The position numbers and the translations under genes were made by a program. The notes under the pieces are model-generated. The model was not told the DNA's origin. It worked only from the letters and a program-made list of their open reading frames with translations, and ran no database searches. From NCBI RefSeq assembly GCF_002449765.1, contig NZ_DJXN01000008.1: a DNA stretch of 64,000 nt; one strand, written 5' to 3'. Origin of the DNA: Fibrobacter sp. UBA7003. GTDB lineage: Bacteria > Fibrobacterota > Fibrobacteria > Fibrobacterales > Fibrobacteraceae. Below are positions 2,095 to 64,000 of the stretch, piece after piece; the first letter of the stretch is position 1, and the number at the start of each line of letters is the position of its first letter.

Positions 2095-3560
2095 GACGCC
2101 TTGCCGTCGAGTTTGGCGTGCGCTTCCTTGATTTTGGAAATCAGAACGGAAGTCGCGTCGAATTCTTCCTTGATTTGTCCGAGGATTTCGTCAAAGAGCT
2201 GCTGGTTACAGAACAGCTCGTTGCGGTTCTGCTTGAGGCTGCGGTAGGTATCGCGCAGGCTCAGGAGCGTCTTGGATTCGCGTTCCATGGAGGCGTTGAC
2301 TTCCTTCCGGATTTCTTCGCGCTGGATTTTCTTTTGCGCGATGATGTCGGGGTCGTTTTCGCTCAGGATATAGGTCGGGAGCGTTGCGTAATCTTCGAAC
2401 TTGCCTGTCTTGAGGGTGCTGTTGCTGGAACGGACCACGTTGGTGCGCAGCCCGATGCCCTTGACTGCGGAGTCGATGGCGATGGAACAGTTGGAAGTGC
2501 CGTGATAGTTGCAGCGCACGCGCTTTTCGACCTGGCGCAGTTCGTTGTACGGGTTGAAGTCGCCATCCGTTTCGATATAGCGGAGCGGAACATAGAGCGG
2601 CGTGGATTCGCCGGCGATTGTAACTTTGTACATAACGCAGGCTTCGTTGTTGAATTCCCTGGTGTCGTATTTGTTGTTGCTGCTGTTCAGCAGCCTGTCG
2701 ATGCGGGCGAGGAGGTCGTCGGCATCGTAGCGCTTTTCATGGATTTCCGGGATGTTTTTCAGGAGGATTTCGAGGGCTATCTTCTTGTAGCCTTCGACAA
2801 TAATCTTGTTCGAAATGGTGCGGCCCCAGATGTTTGTGCCGAGGAAGAAGGTGTCCATGAGGCTGGCTTCGGTGCGCCCGTTGAAGAAGGCGGCGGCCTT
2901 TGCGATGTTGCTTAGGACCATCCATTTCTTGATGGAGACGTAGATGTTGTTTGAGTCGCAGAGTTCGGCGAGCTTGCCGATCATGTCGAGCGCATCGGCA
3001 GAGAATGCAATCTTGTTGATTTTCTCTTTCCATTCCGCGGATTCTTCTGGCGTGATGGTGAGTTCTGCGGGGATGTCGGTCAGGGTCACATCGCGGGGGG
3101 TCGTGAGCAGCTGACAGAGGGCGCTTGCCGAGATGCTGTCGGGGAGGGCGACGGTGAGCGCTATCTTGTCTACAATCTCACCGCGGGTCAGGGCCACTTC
3201 GGGGCGCAGGTCGCCCGAAATGATGACCGGCGTGCCGGCGCGATCCTGGAGCGCAATCTGCACGCTCTCTTTTTGGCGCTCGTTCGTGACGTCGTAGCTC
3301 TGGAATACGATAAGGTTATAGTCGCTGAGCTTGGAGGGAATTTCCTGGATGCGCCTGCCGATGCGGAGCACCTTGGCGTTCTTGAATGCGGCGACGAGCC
3401 TGTCGATGACGATGGCCTTGCCGGAGCCGGAGCGGCCGTAGAGGTAGAACGGTTCACGGACGATGGTCGTGAGAAAGGCAAGTTCGATACAGAATTCGCG
3501 TTCGGGGATGCCTGCGGAGAGGGCGTTCATCAAATCCTTAATACGCGTAGAGAGATTCAT
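2091..3560 (-). CDS. AAA+ ATPase-like protein (RavA/MoxR-like N-terminal layout) with a non-canonical Walker B
   Basis: 489-aa ORF. Walker A-like GRSGSGKA follows a RavA-like leader (IKDLMNALSAGIPEREFCIELAFL). The expected hhhhDE position reads LIVFQS. Confidence 0.55.
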   Translation of the reverse strand: MNLSTRIKDLMNALSAGIPEREFCIELAFLTTIVREPFYLYGRSGSGKAIVIDRLVAAFKNAKVLRIGRRIQEIPSKLSDYNLIVFQSYDVTNERQKESVQIALQDRAGTPVIISGDLRPEVALTRGEIVDKIALTVALPDSISASALCQLLTTPRDVTLTDIPAELTITPEESAEWKEKINKIAFSADALDMIGKLAELCDSNNIYVSIKKWMVLSNIAKAAAFFNGRTEASLMDTFFLGTNIWGRTISNKIIVEGYKKIALEILLKNIPEIHEKRYDADDLLARIDRLLNSSNNKYDTREFNNEACVMYKVTIAGESTPLYVPLRYIETDGDFNPYNELRQVEKRVRCNYHGTSNCSIAIDSAVKGIGLRTNVVRSSNSTLKTGKFEDYATLPTYILSENDPDIIAQKKIQREEIRKEVNASMERESKTLLSLRDTYRSLKQNRNELFCNQQLFDEILGQIKEEFDATSVLISKIKEAHAKLDGKAS

Positions 3561-3620
3561 TTTCTATTCCTTCTTGCGGTTTGCGCGTTGCATAAAAAAT
3601 AATAACGTGAGGTCATCCGT

Positions 3621-7538: not shown

Positions 7539-8195
7539 CTAGCCCTTGAAGTCGTCGAGGGCGTCGTTCGGGCCCATGAGGAACAGCACGTCGTTTTCCT
7601 TGAGCACGTAGTCGGCGAGGTTGCCTATCTTGGGCTTGGTCTCGAGCGGGTCGCGGATGGCGATGACCTGGATGCCGTACTTGTGCGTGAGCGAGAGGTC
7701 CTTGAGGGTCTTGCCCTGGAACTTTTCGGGGCACACGACCTCGACGATGGAGAAGCCTTCCATGAACGGCAGGAAGTCGAGCATGTTCGGCCTGTTCAGG
7801 CGTTCGGCGAGCGCGATGGCGCTGTCGCGTTCCGGGTGGAAGATGTCGGATACGCCGAGCTTCTCGAGGATGCTCGAGTGGGCGGCGCTAGAGGACTTCG
7901 CGATGATGTGCTTTACGCCGAGTTCCTTCAGGTTCAGTACGGTAAGGAGGCTTGCTTCCAGGTTCTCGCCGATACAGACGATGACGGAGTCCGCCTTCTG
8001 GAGCGGGATGCTCGCGAGCTGCTTCTTGCGTGTGGAGTCGGCGACCATGGCCTGCGATACGGTGCTGGAGATGTCCTGCACCTTTTCGGGGTGGTTGTCC
8101 ACAACGAGCACGTCGTGGCCGAGGCTCGTCAGGTGACGGGCCAGAAAGATGGCGGAGTTGCCGAGCCCGATGATGATGTACTGTTTAGATGCCAT
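7539..8195 (-). CDS. trkA: Trk/Ktr potassium uptake system, NAD-binding peripheral subunit
   Basis: 218 aa. Rossmann motif IIIGLGNSAIFLARHL, an RCK-C-like C-terminus, and an adjacent TrkH gene. Confidence 0.85.
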   Translation of the reverse strand: MASKQYIIIGLGNSAIFLARHLTSLGHDVLVVDNHPEKVQDISSTVSQAMVADSTRKKQLASIPLQKADSVIVCIGENLEASLLTVLNLKELGVKHIIAKSSSAAHSSILEKLGVSDIFHPERDSAIALAERLNRPNMLDFLPFMEGFSIVEVVCPEKFQGKTLKDLSLTHKYGIQVIAIRDPLETKPKIGNLADYVLKENDVLFLMGPNDALDDFKG

Positions 8196-8237: not shown

Positions 8238-9641
8238 TTAGCCCACCATGATGTCTTCTTCGGCATACCAGGTAGTGTTCTGGACCCTGCCGGCGACCGC
8301 CGAAATGAGGAAAAGCGGGCCCATACGGCCGATAAACATCACGCAGCAGATGACAATCTGGCCTACGGTGGAAAGTTCGCCGGTAAGCCCCATCGAGAGT
8401 CCGCAGGTGCTGTAGGCGCTGATGACCTCGAAGAGGATCTTGAGGAAGGGGGTGCCGTTCTCGTTGAACCCGGTGCCCGCCGGAATCTCGGTGATGAGGA
8501 GGACCATCGTTGCAAGCGCTATAACGACGATGGCGACCACGAAGATTCGCACGGCCTTGTCGACCGTGGTTTCGGGGATGGTACGGCCCATGACCTGGGT
8601 CTTTTCGCGGCCGAGCAGGCGGTTGAACCCGAGCAGCCCGATGACCGCCGCGGTCGTTACCTTGATGCCGCCGCCGCAGCTGCCGGGGTTTGCGCCGATG
8701 AACATGATGATGGCGAAGAAGAACAGGGAGCTTGCGCACAGGGCCGGGGTGTCTACCGTGTTGAGGCCCGCGGTGCGGCTTGTGAAGGCCATGAAGAACG
8801 TGGTTTGGAGCTTGTCGAAGAAGCTTAAGCCGTCGAGCGTGTTGCCCCATTCGGTTATCATGAAGGCGACGATGCTTGCGCCGATGATGACGAACGTGCA
8901 GAACGTCGCGATGCGGGTATGGAGCGAAATCTTGCGGAACTTGCGCTGCTTGAAGTCGAAGGAATACTGCAGCTCGGTGATGGCGAGGAACCCGAAGCCC
9001 CCGGCCAGCGCGAGGATGCAGGTGGTGATGTTCATGACCGGGTTCAGCTGGAACTGTACGAGCGAGTCGGGGAACAGCGTGAACCCGACGTTACAGAACG
9101 AACTGACTGCCTGGAATAGCGAGCAGAAGATGCGGTCGTGGAGCTCCATGTCTCCAAACTGCGTAAAGTAGAGCACGCCGCCGATGGCTTCCAGTATGAA
9201 CGTGAAGGGGAGGACGGCCATGAGGATGCGCTTCGCGTCGACGTTTCCCTCTTGCGTGAAGTCGGCGAGCAGCACGGACTGGTGGTTAAAGCCCGGGTGC
9301 ATGCCCGCAAGCAGGATAAGCACGGTAGACACGGTCATGATGCCGAGGCCGCCCAGCTGCATGAGGACGACGAGCACCCAGTTGCCGAATGTCGAGAAGG
9401 TCGAGCTGATGTCGATGACGGAAAGGCCTGTCACGCACACTGCGGATGTGGCCGTGAAGAGCGCCTGGAGAAAGTCGATGGGCTCGCGGGTGGAGACCGG
9501 CAGGCGCAGGAGTACCGCGCCGACGGTTATAAGCATAAGATAACCGAGCACCACCAGGGTAATCGGGTTTGCCTGTTTTTTCGGTTTGAAGACGTTCTCG
9601 GACGTCGTATCCGAGAAGGCTTGGTACTTGGAACGAAGCAT
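8238..9641 (-). CDS. trkH: TrkH/KtrB-family potassium transporter membrane subunit
   Basis: 467 aa and polytopic. Repeated selectivity-filter-like motifs (VTGLSV, CNVGFT, RTAGLNT, STCGLS). Confidence 0.85.
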   Translation of the reverse strand: MLRSKYQAFSDTTSENVFKPKKQANPITLVVLGYLMLITVGAVLLRLPVSTREPIDFLQALFTATSAVCVTGLSVIDISSTFSTFGNWVLVVLMQLGGLGIMTVSTVLILLAGMHPGFNHQSVLLADFTQEGNVDAKRILMAVLPFTFILEAIGGVLYFTQFGDMELHDRIFCSLFQAVSSFCNVGFTLFPDSLVQFQLNPVMNITTCILALAGGFGFLAITELQYSFDFKQRKFRKISLHTRIATFCTFVIIGASIVAFMITEWGNTLDGLSFFDKLQTTFFMAFTSRTAGLNTVDTPALCASSLFFFAIIMFIGANPGSCGGGIKVTTAAVIGLLGFNRLLGREKTQVMGRTIPETTVDKAVRIFVVAIVVIALATMVLLITEIPAGTGFNENGTPFLKILFEVISAYSTCGLSMGLTGELSTVGQIVICCVMFIGRMGPLFLISAVAGRVQNTTWYAEEDIMVG

Positions 9642-57392: not shown

Positions 57393-57426
57393 CCTAGGCT
57401 CAAACGAGCCTAGGCTTTCTTATTTC
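57393..57426. terminator. hairpin between convergent PL1 and KilA-N genes, also the approximate left edge of the low-GC island
   Basis: CCTAGGCTC (57393-57401), loop AAAC, GAGCCTAGG (57406-57414), then CTTTCTTATTT. Overlaps the KilA-N stop. Confidence 0.5.
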
Positions 57427-58229
57427 AAAAGCTTGTTCTCTCCGATAGATTCCAGTACTGTCATCTGCGAAATCGCAATCTGGTTCAGCTTTTGCAATCG
57501 TTCTGGCTGCGGCAAGCCTTCCTTGATCAGGACGGAATTCAGCGATTCCATATTCGAAAGGCATATAAGCTGGTTTACCGTCGCATAGTCGCGGACATTG
57601 CCCTGCAAATCGGCGTGTGCATCGCGCCATTCCTTAGCCGTAAATCCGAATAAAGCAACATTTAGAACATCGGCTTCGTTTGCGTAAACCATGCTCATCT
57701 GTTGCTTTGTAAGTGTTGCCGGAATCAAATTCTGCTTGATGGCGTCCGTATGGATATGGTAGTTGATTTTTGAGAGTTCACGACGTAGTGACCATCCTAA
57801 TTGAGCTTGTTCCGCAGCCTTGAGGCGTTGGAACTCCTTAACCAAGTACAATTCGAATTCGACAGAAACCCAACTTGCAAATTTGACGGCGATATCATAT
57901 TGTGCGAATGTCCCGCCGTTAACACCATTTTTAGAAATGAGTCCAATTGCACCAGTTTCTTCAATCCATCGAGAAGGGCTCATAGTGAACGAATGGCTAC
58001 CAGCTTCTTTTAAAAAGGGGTCGAATTCGACCCCTTTGAAGTCGGGATTGTTCAACATTTCCCATAAACCTAAGTATTCTATTGTATTTTTTGACCTCAT
58101 CCAATTTTTCACAACATCCTTAGGCTCCACAGGATTCTTTTGCCGAGCAATATCAGTAATGCAGACATAATCGACGCCGTTAACGAGCATTGTTTTGATT
58201 TCACGGTTCATGACGTTTATTCGTTTCAT
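57420..58229 (-). CDS. KilA-N domain-containing DNA-binding protein
   Basis: 269 aa. VNGVDYVCITDIAR ... NWMRSKNTIEYLGLWE ... GGTFAQYDIAVKFASWVSVEFELYL is the typical KilA-N pattern. Confidence 0.8.
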   Translation of the reverse strand: MKRINVMNREIKTMLVNGVDYVCITDIARQKNPVEPKDVVKNWMRSKNTIEYLGLWEMLNNPDFKGVEFDPFLKEAGSHSFTMSPSRWIEETGAIGLISKNGVNGGTFAQYDIAVKFASWVSVEFELYLVKEFQRLKAAEQAQLGWSLRRELSKINYHIHTDAIKQNLIPATLTKQQMSMVYANEADVLNVALFGFTAKEWRDAHADLQGNVRDYATVNQLICLSNMESLNSVLIKEGLPQPERLQKLNQIAISQMTVLESIGENKLLK

Positions 58230-58443
58230 CTTTTACTCCTTTTTTGCTACGGACAAGCGTAAAAACCGTAGTGTTTGAAATTTTGGGCACTAGAACGTTT
58301 GTGCACTAATAAATATAACTCCACAAGGGGTGAATGTCAAGAGATTTTCGTTTTTTTTTGAAACGAGATTTGAAAAAATATAAATTGTCATTTTATGACA
58401 GTTTATGAATATATATTTGTGGTATAACCAAATGGAGGCTATT

Positions 58444-59097
58444 ATGGAACAGAATCAGAAAACTATTAGAGTTATGGGGACGGGCTTTGTCAAAATCTCT
58501 CCGGACACCACGAGACTCACTTTTTCTATAGATTCCAAGCACGATTCCTATGAAAAGGCATATAACGAGGCCTCCCTAGGTAACAAAGGTTTGAGGGATG
58601 CTCTTGAAAAGCTGAATATTCCGAAGGAATCTCTTAAGACATCAGATTTCTCGATAAGTAAACATCGGGAATGGATTAGCAAGGAAGTCCGGTGGCTTGT
58701 CGAATATCATTTGAATCAAAGTCTCTCTATTGAGTTGCCTTTGGATAGTGTTCTTACATCAAAGGTTATGTCGACTTTGGGAGCCGCGTGGCCTGAACTC
58801 GAAGTGAACATATCTTTTATCAGGAAAGATTCTCACGATGTCAAGCTTCAAATTCTCGAATCGGCAGTCAAGGATGCCCGCGAAAAAGCCGAGGTGATCG
58901 CCATGACGCTTGGACATAAGCTAGGCGGTATCGTAAGTGTCGATTACTCCAGACGTAGCATTGACGTTTATGTTGGTCGGGAAGATTATAACATGGTGGC
59001 TGATTTAGCAGAAAGTTCCGGCTCGCAATCTGTTGATTATACCCCTGATGATATTGAAGCAGGAGATACTGTTGAAACAGTCTGGTATTTGGATTAG
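58444..59097 (+). CDS. SIMPL (DUF541) domain protein without a signal peptide
   Basis: ATG 5 nt after GGAGG. IRVMGTGFVKISPDTTRLTFSI ... AYNEAS ... AVKDAREKAEVIA follows the SIMPL pattern. Confidence 0.65.
   Translation: MEQNQKTIRVMGTGFVKISPDTTRLTFSIDSKHDSYEKAYNEASLGNKGLRDALEKLNIPKESLKTSDFSISKHREWISKEVRWLVEYHLNQSLSIELPLDSVLTSKVMSTLGAAWPELEVNISFIRKDSHDVKLQILESAVKDAREKAEVIAMTLGHKLGGIVSVDYSRRSIDVYVGREDYNMVADLAESSGSQSVDYTPDDIEAGDTVETVWYLD
59070..59097 (+). repeat. 28-bp perfect direct repeat, copy 1 (last codons plus stop of the SIMPL gene)
   Basis: TGTTGAAACAGTCTGGTATTTGGATTAG is identical to 59500-59527. Confidence 0.95.
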
Positions 59098-59149
59098 ACA
59101 AAATAGAGGATTGATTTTATTGTTGATAAAATCAATAAGGCAACAATAT

Positions 59150-59449
59150 TCAATCTATGATGATGCCTTTTGTAAACATTTTGTCGCGATGCTTGAAGTA
59201 TTTGTCAAGTTCTTTTTCGACTGCTTTGAAAAATTTTTTCGCATTCGGGTCTACATGCAGTAGCATACTAGCTAAATCACGCATCCAATTAAAGCGCACC
59301 ATCGAATCTGCGGTGTCGAAAAAATCGCGTGTAATATGTTCTCTAGTCGATTTATGCTCCTTCAAAAGTTCATCAATGGCTTCGTCATCGCCAAAATCGT
59401 ATATGGTCTTTTCTCCCAAATTAGAGAAATCTGTACTGATGAGTTTCAT
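59150..59449 (-). CDS. small acidic hypothetical protein (single-gene cassette between the 28-bp repeats)
   Basis: 99-aa ORF on the opposite strand to its neighbours. An AT-rich hairpin at 59110-59136 lies downstream of both converging genes. Confidence 0.5.
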   Translation of the reverse strand: MKLISTDFSNLGEKTIYDFGDDEAIDELLKEHKSTREHITRDFFDTADSMVRFNWMRDLASMLLHVDPNAKKFFKAVEKELDKYFKHRDKMFTKGIIID

Positions 59450-59499
59450 AAAATAACACCTTTCCTCCCTAATATACCACTTTTTTTATAGAAAGTCAA

Positions 59500-59527
59500 T
59501 GTTGAAACAGTCTGGTATTTGGATTAG
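59500..59527 (+). repeat. 28-bp perfect direct repeat, copy 2
   Basis: Identical to 59070-59097. Flanking bases differ on both sides. Confidence 0.95.
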
Positions 59528-59576
59528 TATATTACTGAATTTGCGTTCTTTCCTATTTTTGCAGTAAGGGCGCCTT

Positions 59577-60008
59577 ATGTCAGATCGGAACATCATAAAT
59601 CTTAAATTGTCGATGCGGGCAAGTCAAAAGAGCAGAATTATAGCCATAGTGGCGGCAGTCCTGCTTATTGCTGTGCTGTTTGTAGAAAATTTCTGCCTTG
59701 ATTTCGATTGTGTGTATATGGGAGTTTCAATCTTTGTGTTTGTCGGAATATCTTATGTTCTCCGTTTCTTCTCTGATATTTTTACAGACATGTTTGCTGG
59801 TCTGTTGGCGGCTTCGCTAGGTGCATTTGCAGAGGCTATAATAATATCTATCGCCATCAATTCGATTTTCGACTGTAAATTCGATAAAAACTTTGGAACG
59901 CTATTTTTCTTTTGCTACTGTTTGTGCTTATTGTTTATGGTCATTATGCTCATGTGGAAAGAAAGACGCAAAGAAGAACGGAAAAATACTAGCGTCGATA
60001 ACGGTTAA
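59577..60008 (+). CDS. small four-helix membrane protein, function unknown
   Basis: 143 aa with four hydrophobic segments and a basic C-terminal tail (KERRKEERK). Ends 15 nt before the next ATG. Confidence 0.55.
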   Translation: MSDRNIINLKLSMRASQKSRIIAIVAAVLLIAVLFVENFCLDFDCVYMGVSIFVFVGISYVLRFFSDIFTDMFAGLLAASLGAFAEAIIISIAINSIFDCKFDKNFGTLFFFCYCLCLLFMVIMLMWKERRKEERKNTSVDNG

Positions 60009-60023
60009 GCAAGGCTGGTCAAT

Positions 60024-61523
60024 ATGGACAAACGATACATTAATAGATTTGGAGATTTCTATCGCCATAGGGCATCCCTAGTTTGGTGCATGGGCTCTTT
60101 GGCATATTGCTTTGAGAAAAAAAAGGAATTGCTTAGCGTTCCTGAAAATCTTTGGTCAGCCATTCTTTATCAGATTTCAGATTGTGTCATTGATTTGTAT
60201 CAGTTCGATTTGGCAATGGAAGAACGCATCAATAATATGGAACGATACTTTAACGATGGCCGAGATGTTGTTAATGATCTTGTTCAGAATGACTCGGAAC
60301 TTAAGGTTAAAACAGATGCGCTATACGAATATTTGTGGAATGTAAGAGGGTTTACATATGAAATTATAGATTTACACGGAATCCCTTATACAGATAGGCT
60401 CTCCACAGAAGAACAAGTAGAATTTGAAAATACTTTTTGGAAAAAGGCAACCCCAAAATTCAAGAAAGCCCATAAGGCCTATCGTGATTTGCTCGCGATA
60501 ATGGATGATCGGGTTTACAAGATAAGGAAAAGTCTTGTAAAAGACAAAGTCCCTATATCCTTGCCGCATACGCCGGAAAGTGCCATGTTGCCCGAAGAAA
60601 AGGCTTTTTACCACCAGGCCAAGGCGATTTGGGATAAGGAAGAATACATTGATATCGAAGAAAATGTAAACTACCTGTGGGTTTATGTTCAGGAACTTCT
60701 TGCCAAAAGACAATCGGCGACATTCGAGTTCTTAAAAGGGATTCTCATGCGTCTTTGCGAACGCTACTATACGGAGGAAACGTTCTTCATATCGTGTGGG
60801 CCTTATATTGAGGATTTGGCCCTTGAACGTGGTGATGTCAAGTGCTATTTGGACTGGTCAGAAATGCAACGTGTCTATGGACATTGTTCATTAGAAAGTG
60901 AATCGCGGGTGGGTGTCGCCATGCGCGAAAATATTCCGCTCCATCCGATGGATATCATAATGGCTACGGGTGGTTATTATTCCAAGTTCATTCGCGATAA
61001 CTATGCCCTATACAAGTTCTGCCTTTATCAAAAGTTCTCTGAATATGACAATGCGAAGGGCTGGTATAATCTACTCAAGAAACTTCCGAAGGCAGGACAT
61101 ATAAATGCGGTTCAGTGCTATTTGGGCTTGCCTGGTGTCGTATGCGAGTCGAAAGTTTACAATCTGTTTGACGCTTCGGCGGAGCCTGTCTGTAAAACAA
61201 TAGTTTCTGTTTGCCAAGATGCCGAAAAGATGGCTATTGAAATGAAATCAAACGGTGACTCATGGGAAATAGAGCGTCACGAGCGGATATTTGAGTACTT
61301 AAAGGGATATCTTCCTCAGTTAAAGATGTTCCTAGAAGCAAGGCCGCTGTTTGCGAATGGTGAAGTTATTCCCATCTACATTCCTTATAGGGATATAGCG
61401 ATTTGCCGTGCCGGTGTGGAATCTAAATGCGATGCGGCCGAGATCCAAAGACGGAATATCCGGTTTGTGAACATCGATTCTGAACCCAATCAGGTTGTCG
61501 AAGAAATAAAAAGTCTCTTGTAG
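60024..61523 (+). CDS. 499-aa protein of unknown function (weak TerB-N-like and endonuclease-fold-like hints)
   Basis: Long AT-rich ORF with coding periodicity. Segment EKAFYHQAKAIWDKEEYIDIEENVNYLWVYVQELL and C-terminal segment IPIYIPYRDIAICRAG ... RRNIRFVNID. No confident family. Confidence 0.6.
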   Translation: MDKRYINRFGDFYRHRASLVWCMGSLAYCFEKKKELLSVPENLWSAILYQISDCVIDLYQFDLAMEERINNMERYFNDGRDVVNDLVQNDSELKVKTDALYEYLWNVRGFTYEIIDLHGIPYTDRLSTEEQVEFENTFWKKATPKFKKAHKAYRDLLAIMDDRVYKIRKSLVKDKVPISLPHTPESAMLPEEKAFYHQAKAIWDKEEYIDIEENVNYLWVYVQELLAKRQSATFEFLKGILMRLCERYYTEETFFISCGPYIEDLALERGDVKCYLDWSEMQRVYGHCSLESESRVGVAMRENIPLHPMDIIMATGGYYSKFIRDNYALYKFCLYQKFSEYDNAKGWYNLLKKLPKAGHINAVQCYLGLPGVVCESKVYNLFDASAEPVCKTIVSVCQDAEKMAIEMKSNGDSWEIERHERIFEYLKGYLPQLKMFLEARPLFANGEVIPIYIPYRDIAICRAGVESKCDAAEIQRRNIRFVNIDSEPNQVVEEIKSLL

Positions 61524-61561
61524 CCCGTAGGGCTGTTTCGGCTAAGCCATATATTTGCGTT

Positions 61562-61586
61562 AACCGGCCCCTTAGGGTCGGTTTTT
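61562..61586 (+). terminator. rho-independent terminator after the 499-aa gene
   Basis: AACCGGCCC, loop CTTA, GGGTCGGTT (one G-U pair), then TTTTT. Confidence 0.5.
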
Positions 61587-61889
61587 GCAATATTTGCCAT
61601 TCCAATAATCTATATTGCACGATAAATAGCCCCGTACCGAATGGTTCGGAGCGACCGGAATTTTTGAGTATTTGCTCTAATCTCTGTTTCGAAATCTAGC
61701 AGTTTCACAACTTACGAGAATAGGGCAGACTGCTCACGTCCCAATTGGGGCGTGGGTTGTTTGCAGTTATTGGTAAGTTGGGCTTTGCTAGAGCCTCGAA
61801 ACACAGTAACTTGCAGGCAACTTCGCGCCCTTTTTTTATTGGGTAAATCGTAAGTCAAGTAGAGCGGATCTCGCAACGTTGGAGCCGCC

Positions 61890-64000
61890 ATGGCCGATTT
61901 GGACAAGAGCAAGATTCAAGCCGTCGCACAATACATCGACGAGGTTTCCAAGCAGTTTTCTACGGGCAAGGCGACCGAACACAGTTACCGCCCAGCACTT
62001 GCGAAACTGCTTGGCGACTTGCTCCCCAAATTCACCATCACGAACGAGCCCAGCCGAATCCAGTGCGGAGCGCCGGATTACATTATCGCGAAAGGGAAAG
62101 GAGCAACATCGATTCCTGTTGCCTTCGTAGAGGCTAAAGACATTGGCGATAGTGACCTGGATGGCAACCGCCAGCACAAGGAACAGTTCAACCGCTATAA
62201 GAACTCGCTAGACCATATCCTTTTCACGGATTACCTTGATTTTCATCTTTATGAAAACGGTGAATTTGTCAATAGCATCCGAATCGCAGAAATCAAAGGA
62301 AATAAGATTGCGCTGATAGACACCAATGTCCCGATGTTTTTGGAAATGGTGGCGCATCTCGCGGAATCAATGCCGCAGAAGATAACGAGTTCTACGAAAT
62401 TAGCGCAGATGATGGCCGCCAAGGCGCGCCTCCTTGCCGAAGTGATTGAGAAGACTCTCGAAACTGATAGCGAAAAGACAGGTGAGTTGGCGGGACAATG
62501 GAAATCTTTCCAGAAAGTGTTGATTCACGATTTGACGGAACGGCAATTTGCCGATATTTACGCACAGACAATCTGCTATGGAATGTTTGCAGCAAGGCTC
62601 CATGACGATACTCCCGACACTTTCAGTCGAGAAGAAGCGGCTACACTCATTCCCAAGACAAATCCGTTCTTGCGCAAAGTTTTCCAGAATGTTGCCGCAT
62701 TCGATGTAGATACAAGCATCGCATGGATTGTTGATGACCTGGCAGAAACATTCCGGGTGACGGACATGCCGAAGGTCATGAAAAATTTTGGAAAGGCTAC
62801 TGGTCAGGCCGATCCGATGATTCACTTCTATGAAGATTTTCTGCGCTATTACGACCCTAAGCAGAAAAAGGCTTGCGGTGTTTACTACACGCCCGAACCC
62901 GTTGTTCACTTTATCGTCAATGCTGTCGATGAAATTTTGAAATCCAGCTTCAATTTGAGTGATGGTCTCGCCGACACAAGCAAGGTGACGATTCGACAAA
63001 CTTCGAACCTGTATACGGACAATCGCACCAAAGACCACAAGAAATACGAAACGCGAGAATACCATAAGGTTCAAATTCTCGACCCTGCAACAGGAACGGG
63101 AACATTCCTTGCCGAAGTGGTCCGTAAGATATATTCTGGCATGGAAAACCAGAAGGGAGCTTGGCAAAACTATGTAGAAGAGCATTTACTCCTACGCTTG
63201 AACGGTTTTGAATTCATGATGGCTCCATACGCCGTTGCGCACTTGAAATTAGATATGGTGCTGGCGCAGACGGGTTACAAGGCAAAGCAGGACAAGAGAC
63301 TCCGCATATTCCTTACCAATTCCCTCGAAGAATGTGACCATGACACGGGAACGCTGTTTGCACAATGGCTTGCGCAAGAAGCGAGCGAGGCGAACCTTGT
63401 CAAGCGCGATACTCCCGTGATGGTGATGATTGGCAACCCGCCGTATAGCGTGAGCAGTAGCAATAAAGGCGCTTGGATTCAGGAATTATCGGAAACCTAC
63501 AAGAAAAATTTAAACGAGAAAAATATCCAGCCGCTTTCGGATGATTATATCAAATTCATTCGATTAGGCCATTACTATGTAGAAAAGAATGGCGAAGGAA
63601 TTCTCGCATATATTTCAAACAACAGTTTTATAGATGGAATCATCCACCGACAAATGCGAAAAGCATTGATGGAAACTTTTGATGAAATCTACATTCTTGA
63701 TTTGCATGGAAACACAAGAAAAAAAGAAACCGCTTTTGATGGTGGCAAAGATGAAAATGTTTTCGACATCATGCAAGGCGTAAGCATTAACATCTTTGTT
63801 AAGAAAAAACAGGGCGTCATCCTGAGCGAAGCTCGTAAGGGCGAAGTCGAAGGATTTCTAGCCCGCGTTTATCACTATGAACTCTTCGGCAAACGTTTTG
63901 AAAAGTACGCTTTTCTGGCTAAAACATCATTCAGCGATATTCCTTGGAAAGAACTCTCTCCGCAAGCACCACAATATTTCTTTGTCCCTAAAGATTTTTC
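61890..64000 (+). CDS. Type IIG-like restriction-modification enzyme: N-terminal PD-(D/E)xK nuclease fused to a gamma-class N6-adenine DNA methyltransferase (3' end outside window)
   Basis: I translated this frame codon by codon from ATG 61890 (GGAG SD) to nt 64000 and found no stop. It is absent from the supplied ORF track. Motifs: GAPDYII ... VAFVEAKD (PD ... ExK), GVYYTPEPVVHFIV, ILDPATGTGTFL (SAM motif I) and MIGNPPYSV (motif IV). Confidence 0.8.
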   Translation, partial: MADLDKSKIQAVAQYIDEVSKQFSTGKATEHSYRPALAKLLGDLLPKFTITNEPSRIQCGAPDYIIAKGKGATSIPVAFVEAKDIGDSDLDGNRQHKEQFNRYKNSLDHILFTDYLDFHLYENGEFVNSIRIAEIKGNKIALIDTNVPMFLEMVAHLAESMPQKITSSTKLAQMMAAKARLLAEVIEKTLETDSEKTGELAGQWKSFQKVLIHDLTERQFADIYAQTICYGMFAARLHDDTPDTFSREEAATLIPKTNPFLRKVFQNVAAFDVDTSIAWIVDDLAETFRVTDMPKVMKNFGKATGQADPMIHFYEDFLRYYDPKQKKACGVYYTPEPVVHFIVNAVDEILKSSFNLSDGLADTSKVTIRQTSNLYTDNRTKDHKKYETREYHKVQILDPATGTGTFLAEVVRKIYSGMENQKGAWQNYVEEHLLLRLNGFEFMMAPYAVAHLKLDMVLAQTGYKAKQDKRLRIFLTNSLEECDHDTGTLFAQWLAQEASEANLVKRDTPVMVMIGNPPYSVSSSNKGAWIQELSETYKKNLNEKNIQPLSDDYIKFIRLGHYYVEKNGEGILAYISNNSFIDGIIHRQMRKALMETFDEIYILDLHGNTRKKETAFDGGKDENVFDIMQGVSINIFVKKKQGVILSEARKGEVEGFLARVYHYELFGKRFEKYAFLAKTSFSDIPWKELSPQAPQYFFVPKDF

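Follow-up and report, generated by a model that had tools for sequence, protein, structure and literature searches.

The stretch of DNA analyzed here, 64,000 nucleotides from contig NZ_DJXN01000008.1 of Fibrobacter sp. UBA7003 (assembly GCF_002449765.1) and referred to below as the window, carries near its right-hand end two adjacent genes, gene 1 and gene 2, which are a predicted co-transcribed pair in a foreign, defence-type island of low guanine-plus-cytosine (GC) content of gut/rumen Fibrobacter. The host is an uncultured Fibrobacter, and the same island is also present on two contigs of metagenome-assembled genomes (MAGs). Gene 1 (59577–60008, plus strand, 143 residues) begins with ATG and ends with the stop codon TAA at 60006–60008; it is followed after 15 nucleotides (GCAAGGCTGGTCAAT) by gene 2 (60024–61523, plus strand, 499 residues), which likewise begins with ATG. 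A preliminary description of the locus had given the two open reading frames (ORFs) with these coordinates, strand, starts and spacing, and had seen in gene 1 four hydrophobic helices and a basic tail. Indeed, the hydropathy profile of the gene 1 product contains hydrophobic segments at residues ~21–41, 45–65, 72–95, and 107–127, corresponding to four predicted transmembrane (TM) helices, and the charge distribution reveals a basic C-terminal tail (KERRKEERK) as well as a basic N-terminus. The gene 1 family comprises 6 clusters only, with at least 68% identity and no Pfam domain, and is known solely from the Fibrobacter subclade defined at this level of identity; scans of Pfam, NCBIfam, PADLOC and PHROGs returned for it only compositional TM noise (LMP1, PTPLA and phrog_2034, E ≥ 0.0025). 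In its most divergent homologue (68%; locus L024, 201–545; loci on other contigs are numbered with L and homologous proteins with P) a change of reading frame over the last ~30 codons puts other sequence in place of hydrophobic helix four and of the basic tail; the frame taken up corresponds to an alternative ORF of the window (59893–60081). Gene 1 and gene 2 are real genes and neither chance ORFs nor pseudogenes, since the ratio of nonsynonymous to synonymous substitution rates (dN/dS, or omega), calculated against homologues on other contigs, reveals purifying selection, with values of 0.17–0.30 for gene 1 and 0.06–0.27 overall for gene 2.

Analysis of the gene 2 product, from alignments and from AlphaFold2 (AF2) models, reveals a succession of domains that evolve at different rates. 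Residues 1–170 (60024–60533, plus strand, as for all gene 2 coordinates) form a clade-specific, fast-evolving N-terminal domain that is all-helical in both AF2 models. They are followed by a TerB_N-like region (residues ~177–300, 60552–60923, VPISLPHTPE...FYHQAKAIWDKEEYIDIEENVNYLWVYV...), which is the best-conserved part of the protein, contains the invariant positions of alignment A1 and is modelled with a predicted local distance difference test score (pLDDT) above 90; by a middle helical region with a β-hairpin (residues 301–409, 60924–61250), which includes the invariant HPxD..MATGGYYSKFIRDNYALYK block; and by a degenerate PD-(D/E)xK/Vsr-like domain (residues 410–499, 61251–61523), recognized from the alignments and the topology of the model. 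The core (residues 136–340) shows omega values of 0.03–0.07 with saturated dS, the C-terminal third 0.07–0.18 and the N-terminal 135 residues 0.15–0.57; compared with its homologue in L003, gene 2 is 54% identical at the amino acid level in the N-terminal part and 97% in the core. The first AF2 model, built from 10 close homologues, reached a pLDDT of 71.6 and was poor outside the N-terminal domain, so that the Foldseek result obtained with it is meaningless; the model calculated from a deeper alignment has a pLDDT of 83 and a predicted template modelling score (pTM) of 0.76. A homopolymeric tract of eight adenines (A8) lies in codons 32–34 (60117–60124), and the corresponding MAG contig L012 has A7, which leads to a frameshift. 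Phase variation at this tract was considered and rejected, A8 being present in 13 of 14 near-identical loci and A7 in a single MAG; the A7 of L012 reflects an error of assembly or else a rare slip.

The preliminary description had placed neither protein in a named family or among the known defence systems, and this stands after searches of Pfam, NCBIfam, PADLOC, PHROGs and the PDB, in none of which gene 2 finds a direct match. Sequence-profile searches of the PDB with alignments A1, A3 and A4 found nothing, and a profile search of a database of 5.8 billion proteins with alignment A2 recovered the close clade only, a family of 10 clusters, all metagenomic, with 41–99% identity. The same description had called gene 2 an ORFan, a term that has to be abandoned: an exhaustive HMMER (phmmer) search of 1.84 billion representatives yielded 45 matches, including ~40 clusters of remote relatives with 20–28% identity. 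These are mostly ~360 residues in length, align to residues ~180–465 of gene 2 and lack the N-terminal 170-residue domain; all are annotated as 'hypothetical protein', and they are found on plasmids of many phyla, mostly as stand-alone genes. When the close clade was compared by hhalign with only the remote family, the probability was 99.8% (E = 8e-28) over residues 184–498. Two of the relatives (L017, 9151–11101; L018, 302–2252) have a gene for a 267-residue Mrr_cat-like protein 46 nucleotides upstream and adjoin an integrase fragment, and another (L014, 7887–8873, on the Sphingobium plasmid pYGP1) lies directly 3′ of an imuA-imuB-dnaE2 error-prone polymerase cassette. A phage or prophage origin of gene 2 was rejected, nothing being found in 50,697 phage records, in IMG/VR contigs or in PHROGs.

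It is through these relatives that gene 2 can be placed. Nine of 28 aligned sequences match the Pfam family TerB_N at E ≤ 0.01 via their N-terminal ~130 residues, P0017 alone passing the cut-off of the family (26.2 vs. 25 bits), and 22 of the 28 match the PADLOC model of SngA, again with their first ~130 residues (model positions ~100–216, best E = 8e-11). Gene 2 itself has no match to TerB_N (PF13208) at E ≤ 1, the whole gene 2 clade (the window protein, P0010 and P0011) being negative, and the SngA model has no match at E ≤ 1 to gene 2, to the gene 2 core alone, to P0010 or to P0011. The earlier hint of a TerB-N-type domain in gene 2 is thus supported by transitive homology. On the evidence of these alignments, gene 2 is related, at a distance, to an uncharacterised family of TerB_N-like plus nuclease proteins.

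The nuclease part of this family resides in the C-terminal ~110 residues, in which G-x-G-W..E, Q-H-x-D, A-x-E-x-x-G-x-Q-H, F-G-G, and D..K are invariant among the remote relatives and which can also be described by the motif D...(A/V)-E-(Y/F)-H-G-x-Q-H. This domain gives weak matches to DUF2726 in 7 of 20 sequences, a family which we take to belong to the PD-(D/E)xK clan, and strong matches to PHROG families (E down to 9e-27), including those named 'HNH endonuclease' and 'homing endonuclease'. For gene 2, a C-terminus laid out as in Vsr/DUF559-type endonucleases and devoid of an obvious catalytic triad had been proposed, and both parts of this proposal are borne out. The AF2 model contains at residues 414–483 an α-β-β-β-α-β core (helix 414–429, strands 436–439, 449–453, and 458–461, helix 465–477, strand 480–483) with a pLDDT above 95, which is the PD-(D/E)xK topology. 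The residues expected for catalysis, an acidic residue at the start of the second β-strand and (D/E)-x-(K/H/Q) in the third, are missing: throughout the gene 2 clade, the positions of the invariant D289 and E300 (P0016 numbering) are taken by P450 and C461, and Q305-H306 has no counterpart. The whole Q-H...FGG segment is deleted in this clade, and only the upstream glutamate (E417) is retained. That gene 2 has lost the catalytic residues of its family is, together with its homology, its domain layout and the pattern of its partner genes, well established. The loss of catalytic residues would also be expected if gene 2 were a functionless, decaying remnant of a TerB_N-nuclease gene, and two defects, the frameshift of L012 in its A8 tract and the loss of 5′ sequence in L011 (described below), could be cited in its favour; this is however scarcely credible for a gene under strong purifying selection, with core omega values of 0.03–0.07 at saturated dS, which has an uninterrupted ORF in 13 of 14 near-identical loci and also in homologues as distant as 35% identity.

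The genes found upstream of gene 2 and of its homologues were compared between loci. Every gene 1 locus recovered has a gene 2 homologue 15–32 nucleotides 3′ of gene 1, an arrangement that occurs in three settings: in the KilA-N/SIMPL...Type IIG island (window, L007, L008, L012, L019, L020, L027–L032), 5′ of an AAA_14-DUF4143 gene (L003, L004), and beside a zur-znuABC-zip zinc-uptake cluster (L025, L026). Since gene 1 is always accompanied by gene 2 in all three, the pair moves as a unit, and a remnant of the SIMPL gene, 44–55 residues in length, is dragged along in L003, L004, L025, and L026. The distribution of the pair is narrow, limited to Fibrobacter-type gut and rumen metagenomes. On the other hand, gene 2 homologues with 69–71% identity (L001, L005, L006, L010) and with 35% identity (L016) lie 27–76 nucleotides 3′ of a different gene that encodes a protein of ~820 residues, and two others stand alone. 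Thus, of the two-gene module originally proposed, the constant association of gene 1 with gene 2 is retained, whereas gene 2 has homologues behind the ~820-residue gene in five loci and without any partner in two; the conserved unit is not the gene 1–gene 2 pair.

Between the different contexts, nucleotide similarity extends from the ATG of gene 2 to its stop codon only. In the L011 variant (3530–3600), the equivalent of window positions 59097–60498, that is gene 1 and codons 1–159 of gene 2, is deleted, and the SIMPL stop codon is fused to Met160 of gene 2 through a TAATG stop/start overlap; the product, P0007, is 340 residues in length, is represented by 38 member sequences and resembles in size and architecture the remote ~360-residue family. 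This joint loss is compatible with gene 1 and the N-terminal domain working together, and equally with an autonomous core. It bears on a reading in which gene 2 has an autonomous single-gene function, in defence or otherwise, gene 1 and the ~820-residue protein being incidental or accessory, for example as a membrane anchor. The solo copies in L021 and L002, the homology confined exactly to the gene 2 ORF, the remote relatives that mostly stand alone and the persistence of the shortened product in L011 all speak for such autonomy. It is difficult to reconcile with the facts that gene 1 was invariably seen together with gene 2, that the 15-nucleotide spacing is kept and gene 1 is under purifying selection, that the pair has moved jointly into three contexts and that the linkage with the ~820-residue gene persists down to 35% identity, and we consider it rather unlikely, while giving it more weight than any other alternative to the model presented below.

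The ~820-residue protein (genes at L001 1699–4131, L016 224–2686, L005 229–2638, L033 6846–9242, and L034 1106–3493) contains an N-terminal motif D35...E44-A-K46 and a motif I region, G-A-(F/Y)-Y-T-P / D-M-C-C-G-V-G-N, together with NPPY, all invariant in four homologues. Apart from a weak match to MTase_II (E = 1.5e-5), it has no match in Pfam, NCBIfam, PHROGs or the PDB. It is possibly the representative of a new Type IIG-like nuclease-methyltransferase family. A kinship with the Type IIG enzyme of the window was rejected, nothing being shared beyond motif I. These features are relevant to a further alternative, in which gene 2 would act as an accessory subunit to restriction-modification (R-M) enzymes, as regulator, specificity factor or DNA-binding partner; its dead nuclease fold would bind DNA, and it would serve the ~820-residue NPPY enzyme in other lineages and, in the window, the Type IIG enzyme encoded 366 bp downstream. 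The motifs of the ~820-residue protein and its MTase_II match, the position of its gene 5′ of gene 2 in five loci (L001, L005, L006, L010, L016) and the Type IIG gene that follows gene 2 in the window and in many related loci agree with this proposal, as does the observation that ~820-residue proteins 72% identical to each other are found in loci whose gene 2 copies are 35% identical, as expected of a fast-evolving specificity or sensor partner. However, beyond motif I the Type IIG enzyme bears no relation to the ~820-residue protein; it is full-length with a self-sufficient architecture and is encoded behind a terminator-like hairpin; moreover, the gene 1–gene 2 pair is also found next to AAA_14 or zinc-uptake genes with no R-M gene, and plasmid-borne homologues of the ~820-residue protein have no gene 2-like partner. 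An accessory role in restriction-modification is on balance distinctly improbable.

The surroundings of the pair in the window are as previously outlined, with low GC content, a KilA-N gene, a Type IIG-like R-M gene and the scar of a cassette insertion. The GC content is 0.41 at 57400–61900 vs. 0.55 at 1–57000, and the island extends from ~57.4 kb to the end of the window, 3′ of a gene for a 947-residue secreted-type protein. Its left edge is occupied by the KilA-N domain gene (57420–58229, minus strand; Pfam E = 6e-17), the most constant gene at this position, which matches the PADLOC candidate PDC-S22 over almost its full length (E = 4.9e-126) as well as a PHROG 'transcriptional regulator' family (1.7e-53). 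On the right, the gene for a Type IIG/ISP-like R-M fusion protein (61890–64000, plus strand; PADLOC E = 2e-217) starts 366 bp beyond gene 2 and runs past the end of the window; in related loci its product has 1071–1090 residues, with the architecture MmeI_Mtase, Eco57I, Type_ISP_C, and the gene is found 3′ of gene 2 in the window and in L007, L012, L013, L019, L020, L022, L023, and L027–L031. Its amino acid identity between islands (window, L012, L013, L019, L020, L022, L023, L027) ranges from 78% to 100%, for example 92% for L019 vs. 78% for L020, whereas the other genes are 91–99% identical, a pattern suggestive of allelic replacement or of reshuffled target-recognition domains. The island versions in L027–L032 contain an AbiEi antitoxin-like gene (PADLOC 5.5e-72), beside which no AbiEii was called, and a shortened KilA-N gene of 181 residues vs. 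269 in the window; in L027 these two genes occupy 7575–8114 and 8539–9084. The preliminary view that these surroundings are of the defence type extends to the related loci: across the window and these loci, the neighbours include Type IIG/ISP R-M, KilA-N/PDC-S22, AbiEi (5.5e-72), RhuM/PDC-S05 and AAA_14-DUF4143/PDC-S01 genes and a gene for an HD-domain protein, and the defence context of the gene 2 loci is suggestive.

Between the KilA-N gene and gene 1 lies a SIMPL/DUF541 gene (58405–59097, plus strand, thus in the same orientation as gene 1 and gene 2; Pfam E = 1.5e-31), YggE-like and with a weak match to 'oxidative stress defense protein', which is found ~50 nucleotides 5′ of gene 1 in L007, L008, L012, L019, L020, and L027–L032. 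In the window it is separated from gene 1 by a 402-bp insertion (59098–59499), the earlier-noted cassette scar, flanked by perfect 28-bp direct repeats (59070–59097 and 59500–59527) that duplicate the final 28 nucleotides of the SIMPL gene. The insertion has 35% GC, is specific to the window, being absent from L007, L008, L012, and all other related loci, and encodes on the minus strand a 99-residue ORF (59150–59449) with a strong −35/−10 match (TTGACT-17-TATATT with TG, 59499–59471); apart from the 28-bp direct repeat, neither inverted repeats nor a family match were found in it. A sigma-70-like promoter candidate for gene 1 (TTGAAA-17-TAGTAT, 59502–59530, plus strand) lies 47 nucleotides 5′ of gene 1 within the second copy of the repeat; it is weak, matching at 9 of 12 positions, and such sites are no commoner in the region than in shuffled sequences. 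Downstream of the pair, the hairpin and T-run that had been taken as the end of the transcription unit (61562–61586, plus strand, 39 nucleotides past the gene 2 stop codon; 9-bp G+C-rich stem, 4-nucleotide loop, U-run) does fold, the 81-nucleotide stretch having a minimum free energy of −31.3 kcal/mol (z = −2.95 vs. shuffles). A consensus terminator scan did not list it, and it is for this reason graded as terminator-like and not as proven.

The co-oriented SIMPL/YggE-like gene directly upstream of the pair in most loci brings to mind a function other than anti-phage defence, namely a stress-response or addiction module as the cargo of a mobile island, either of a Ter/SIMPL type acting against membrane or oxidative stress or with gene 1 as toxin and gene 2 as antidote. 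TerB-type domains were first linked to tellurite and stress resistance, and a small hydrophobic protein encoded 5′ of a larger one recalls the layout of some toxin-antitoxin systems. Yet the SIMPL gene is only a remnant in L003, L004, L025, and L026, where the pair is intact, an antitoxin of 499 residues would be unusual, and the neighbours are overwhelmingly of the R-M/Abi type, all of which makes such a module very unlikely.

Comparison with described defence systems is informative, as Shango, Bunzi and Dionysus, all of them validated, include proteins of the TerB type; membrane surveillance has been proposed for those of Shango and Bunzi, their mechanism being unknown. In Shango, SngA is a TerB-like protein that works with an ATPase and a DEAD/DEAH helicase. 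The region of SngA matched by the remote relatives (~100–216) is homologous, by hhalign, to residues ~184–300 of gene 2, and the gene 2 locus shares with Shango the defence-island setting. The degenerate nuclease and the novel N-terminal domain of gene 2 lie, however, outside the matched region, and instead of genes for the SngB ATPase and the SngC helicase the island contains those for the KilA-N, SIMPL, gene 1 and Type IIG proteins. The locus is thus not a Shango system, given the absence of a SngA match for gene 2 and of the ATPase and helicase. Bunzi, also validated, likewise ties a TerB-type domain to the membrane, but its TM helices are within the TerB protein, whereas at the gene 2 locus they are in a separate one; PADLOC gave no Bunzi match, and the locus is neither Bunzi nor any other PADLOC system. 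Dionysus is a validated system of Beta- and Gammaproteobacteria for which membrane surveillance coupled to a pore-forming effector has been proposed, and which consists of DinA (MAEBL and TM), DinB (TerB-like) and DinC, a four-TM pore-forming toxin (bioRxiv 10.1101/2025.09.30.679545). Compared by description, the two have in common that a soluble TerB-type protein and a small four-TM protein are encoded together. They differ in that Dionysus has three genes and the present locus two, without a DinA-like ORF, in that the TerB-type domain of DinB contrasts with a TerB_N-like region joined to a dead nuclease domain in gene 2, and in the host, here Fibrobacter; the absence of DinA sets the locus apart from Dionysus, as far as the description of the latter allows. 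By analogy, Dionysus offers a precedent for the logic of a TerB-like protein combined with a membrane protein. Finally, the ~360-residue family (P0016, P0017, and WP_017501905.1 of Sphingobium plasmid pYGP1) is homologous over residues 184–498 of gene 2 with the same domain order and has a similar mobile, plasmid or island setting, but it keeps the D, E, Q-H, FGG and D..K residues and has neither the 170-residue N-terminal domain nor a four-TM partner. From these comparisons, the gene 1–gene 2 pair is an undescribed variant among the many defence candidates that combine a TerB-type protein with an effector.

The model that we favour, at somewhat less than an even chance, is that of a candidate anti-phage module, with gene 2 as predicted sensor and gene 1 as putative membrane effector. 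The ancestor would have been a single chain in which a TerB_N-like region and a nuclease of the PD-(D/E)xK/homing-endonuclease type acted as sensor and effector within one protein. In the gene 2 clade, the nuclease half would have been disabled with its fold kept, and the fast-evolving helical N-terminal domain of 170 residues gained; gene 2 may in this way have become the sensor or adaptor of a module directed against mobile elements, which no longer kills alone and acts via the partner encoded just upstream. In Fibrobacter this partner would be gene 1, a four-TM protein that might damage or depolarise the membrane once released or activated (abortive infection), and in other lineages the ~820-residue protein with its nuclease motif and N6-adenine-methyltransferase-like part. 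Such a reading with exchangeable partners is the most economical one, because the effector half is dead yet conserved, an N-terminal domain has been gained and the upstream gene differs by lineage. We infer the defence function, sensing by gene 2, the effector role of gene 1 and the interaction between the two. A more general claim, that gene 2 stands for a new modular anti-phage family in which a portable, dead-nuclease TerB_N-like sensor/adaptor with a hypervariable N-terminal domain is combined with swapped upstream effectors, appears doubtful at present.

Several observations weigh against the sensor-effector model. The TerB_N link of gene 2 is transitive and covers only positions 51–146 of the 207 of the Pfam model, and with PADLOC-DB 2.0.0 no family was matched at E ≤ 1 by either gene, a result that counts here for gene 2. 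With the improved gene 2 model, Foldseek found no significant match in the PDB or BFVD; local matches in BFVD, ~100 residues long and to models labelled 'restriction enzyme' or 'homing endonuclease', have high probability and E values of 0.2–1.6, and since they are not significant the nuclease fold rests on homology and topology. The C-terminal domain has the invariant residues D457, C461, C469, D470, E473, and R476-R477, which could make up a different active site or one that binds metal, which is why the inactivity of gene 2 is to be read as deduced from the motifs of the parent family. Gene 1 resembles none of the known effectors, and for its four-TM product a role as anchor or as immunity factor would be just as conceivable. 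The solo homologues of gene 2 are found among housekeeping-type genes (L021, 64% identity, with yidC-like and glycosidase neighbours; L002, 41%), from which it follows that a partner is not obligatory, and homologues of the ~820-residue protein on small Acinetobacter and Fluviibacter plasmids have no gene 2-like neighbour. In addition, the defence-island context is drawn from about a dozen mostly short metagenomic contigs of closely related organisms. Ranked by weight, the alternatives are the autonomous function of gene 2, then the R-M accessory subunit, then the stress or addiction module, and last the decaying remnant.

TerB-type domains recur in validated defence systems, in which their role is unknown. 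If the more general claim of a modular family is correct, the gene 2 clade would show how a single-chain sensor-nuclease of defence, once its built-in effector domain is silenced, turns into a system of several components. Nature provides comparators for the pair: relatives with an active nuclease, a variant without gene 1 and the N-terminal domain, methyltransferase-coupled versions and solo versions. Should the pair turn out not to protect against phages, it would be one more unannotated pair of cargo genes in a genomic island of Fibrobacter. If it does protect, it would clarify how TerB_N-type sensors signal to their effectors and how effectors are exchanged, and would give a function to a widespread family of 'hypothetical proteins' and to an uncharacterised family of plasmid-borne ~820-residue enzymes.

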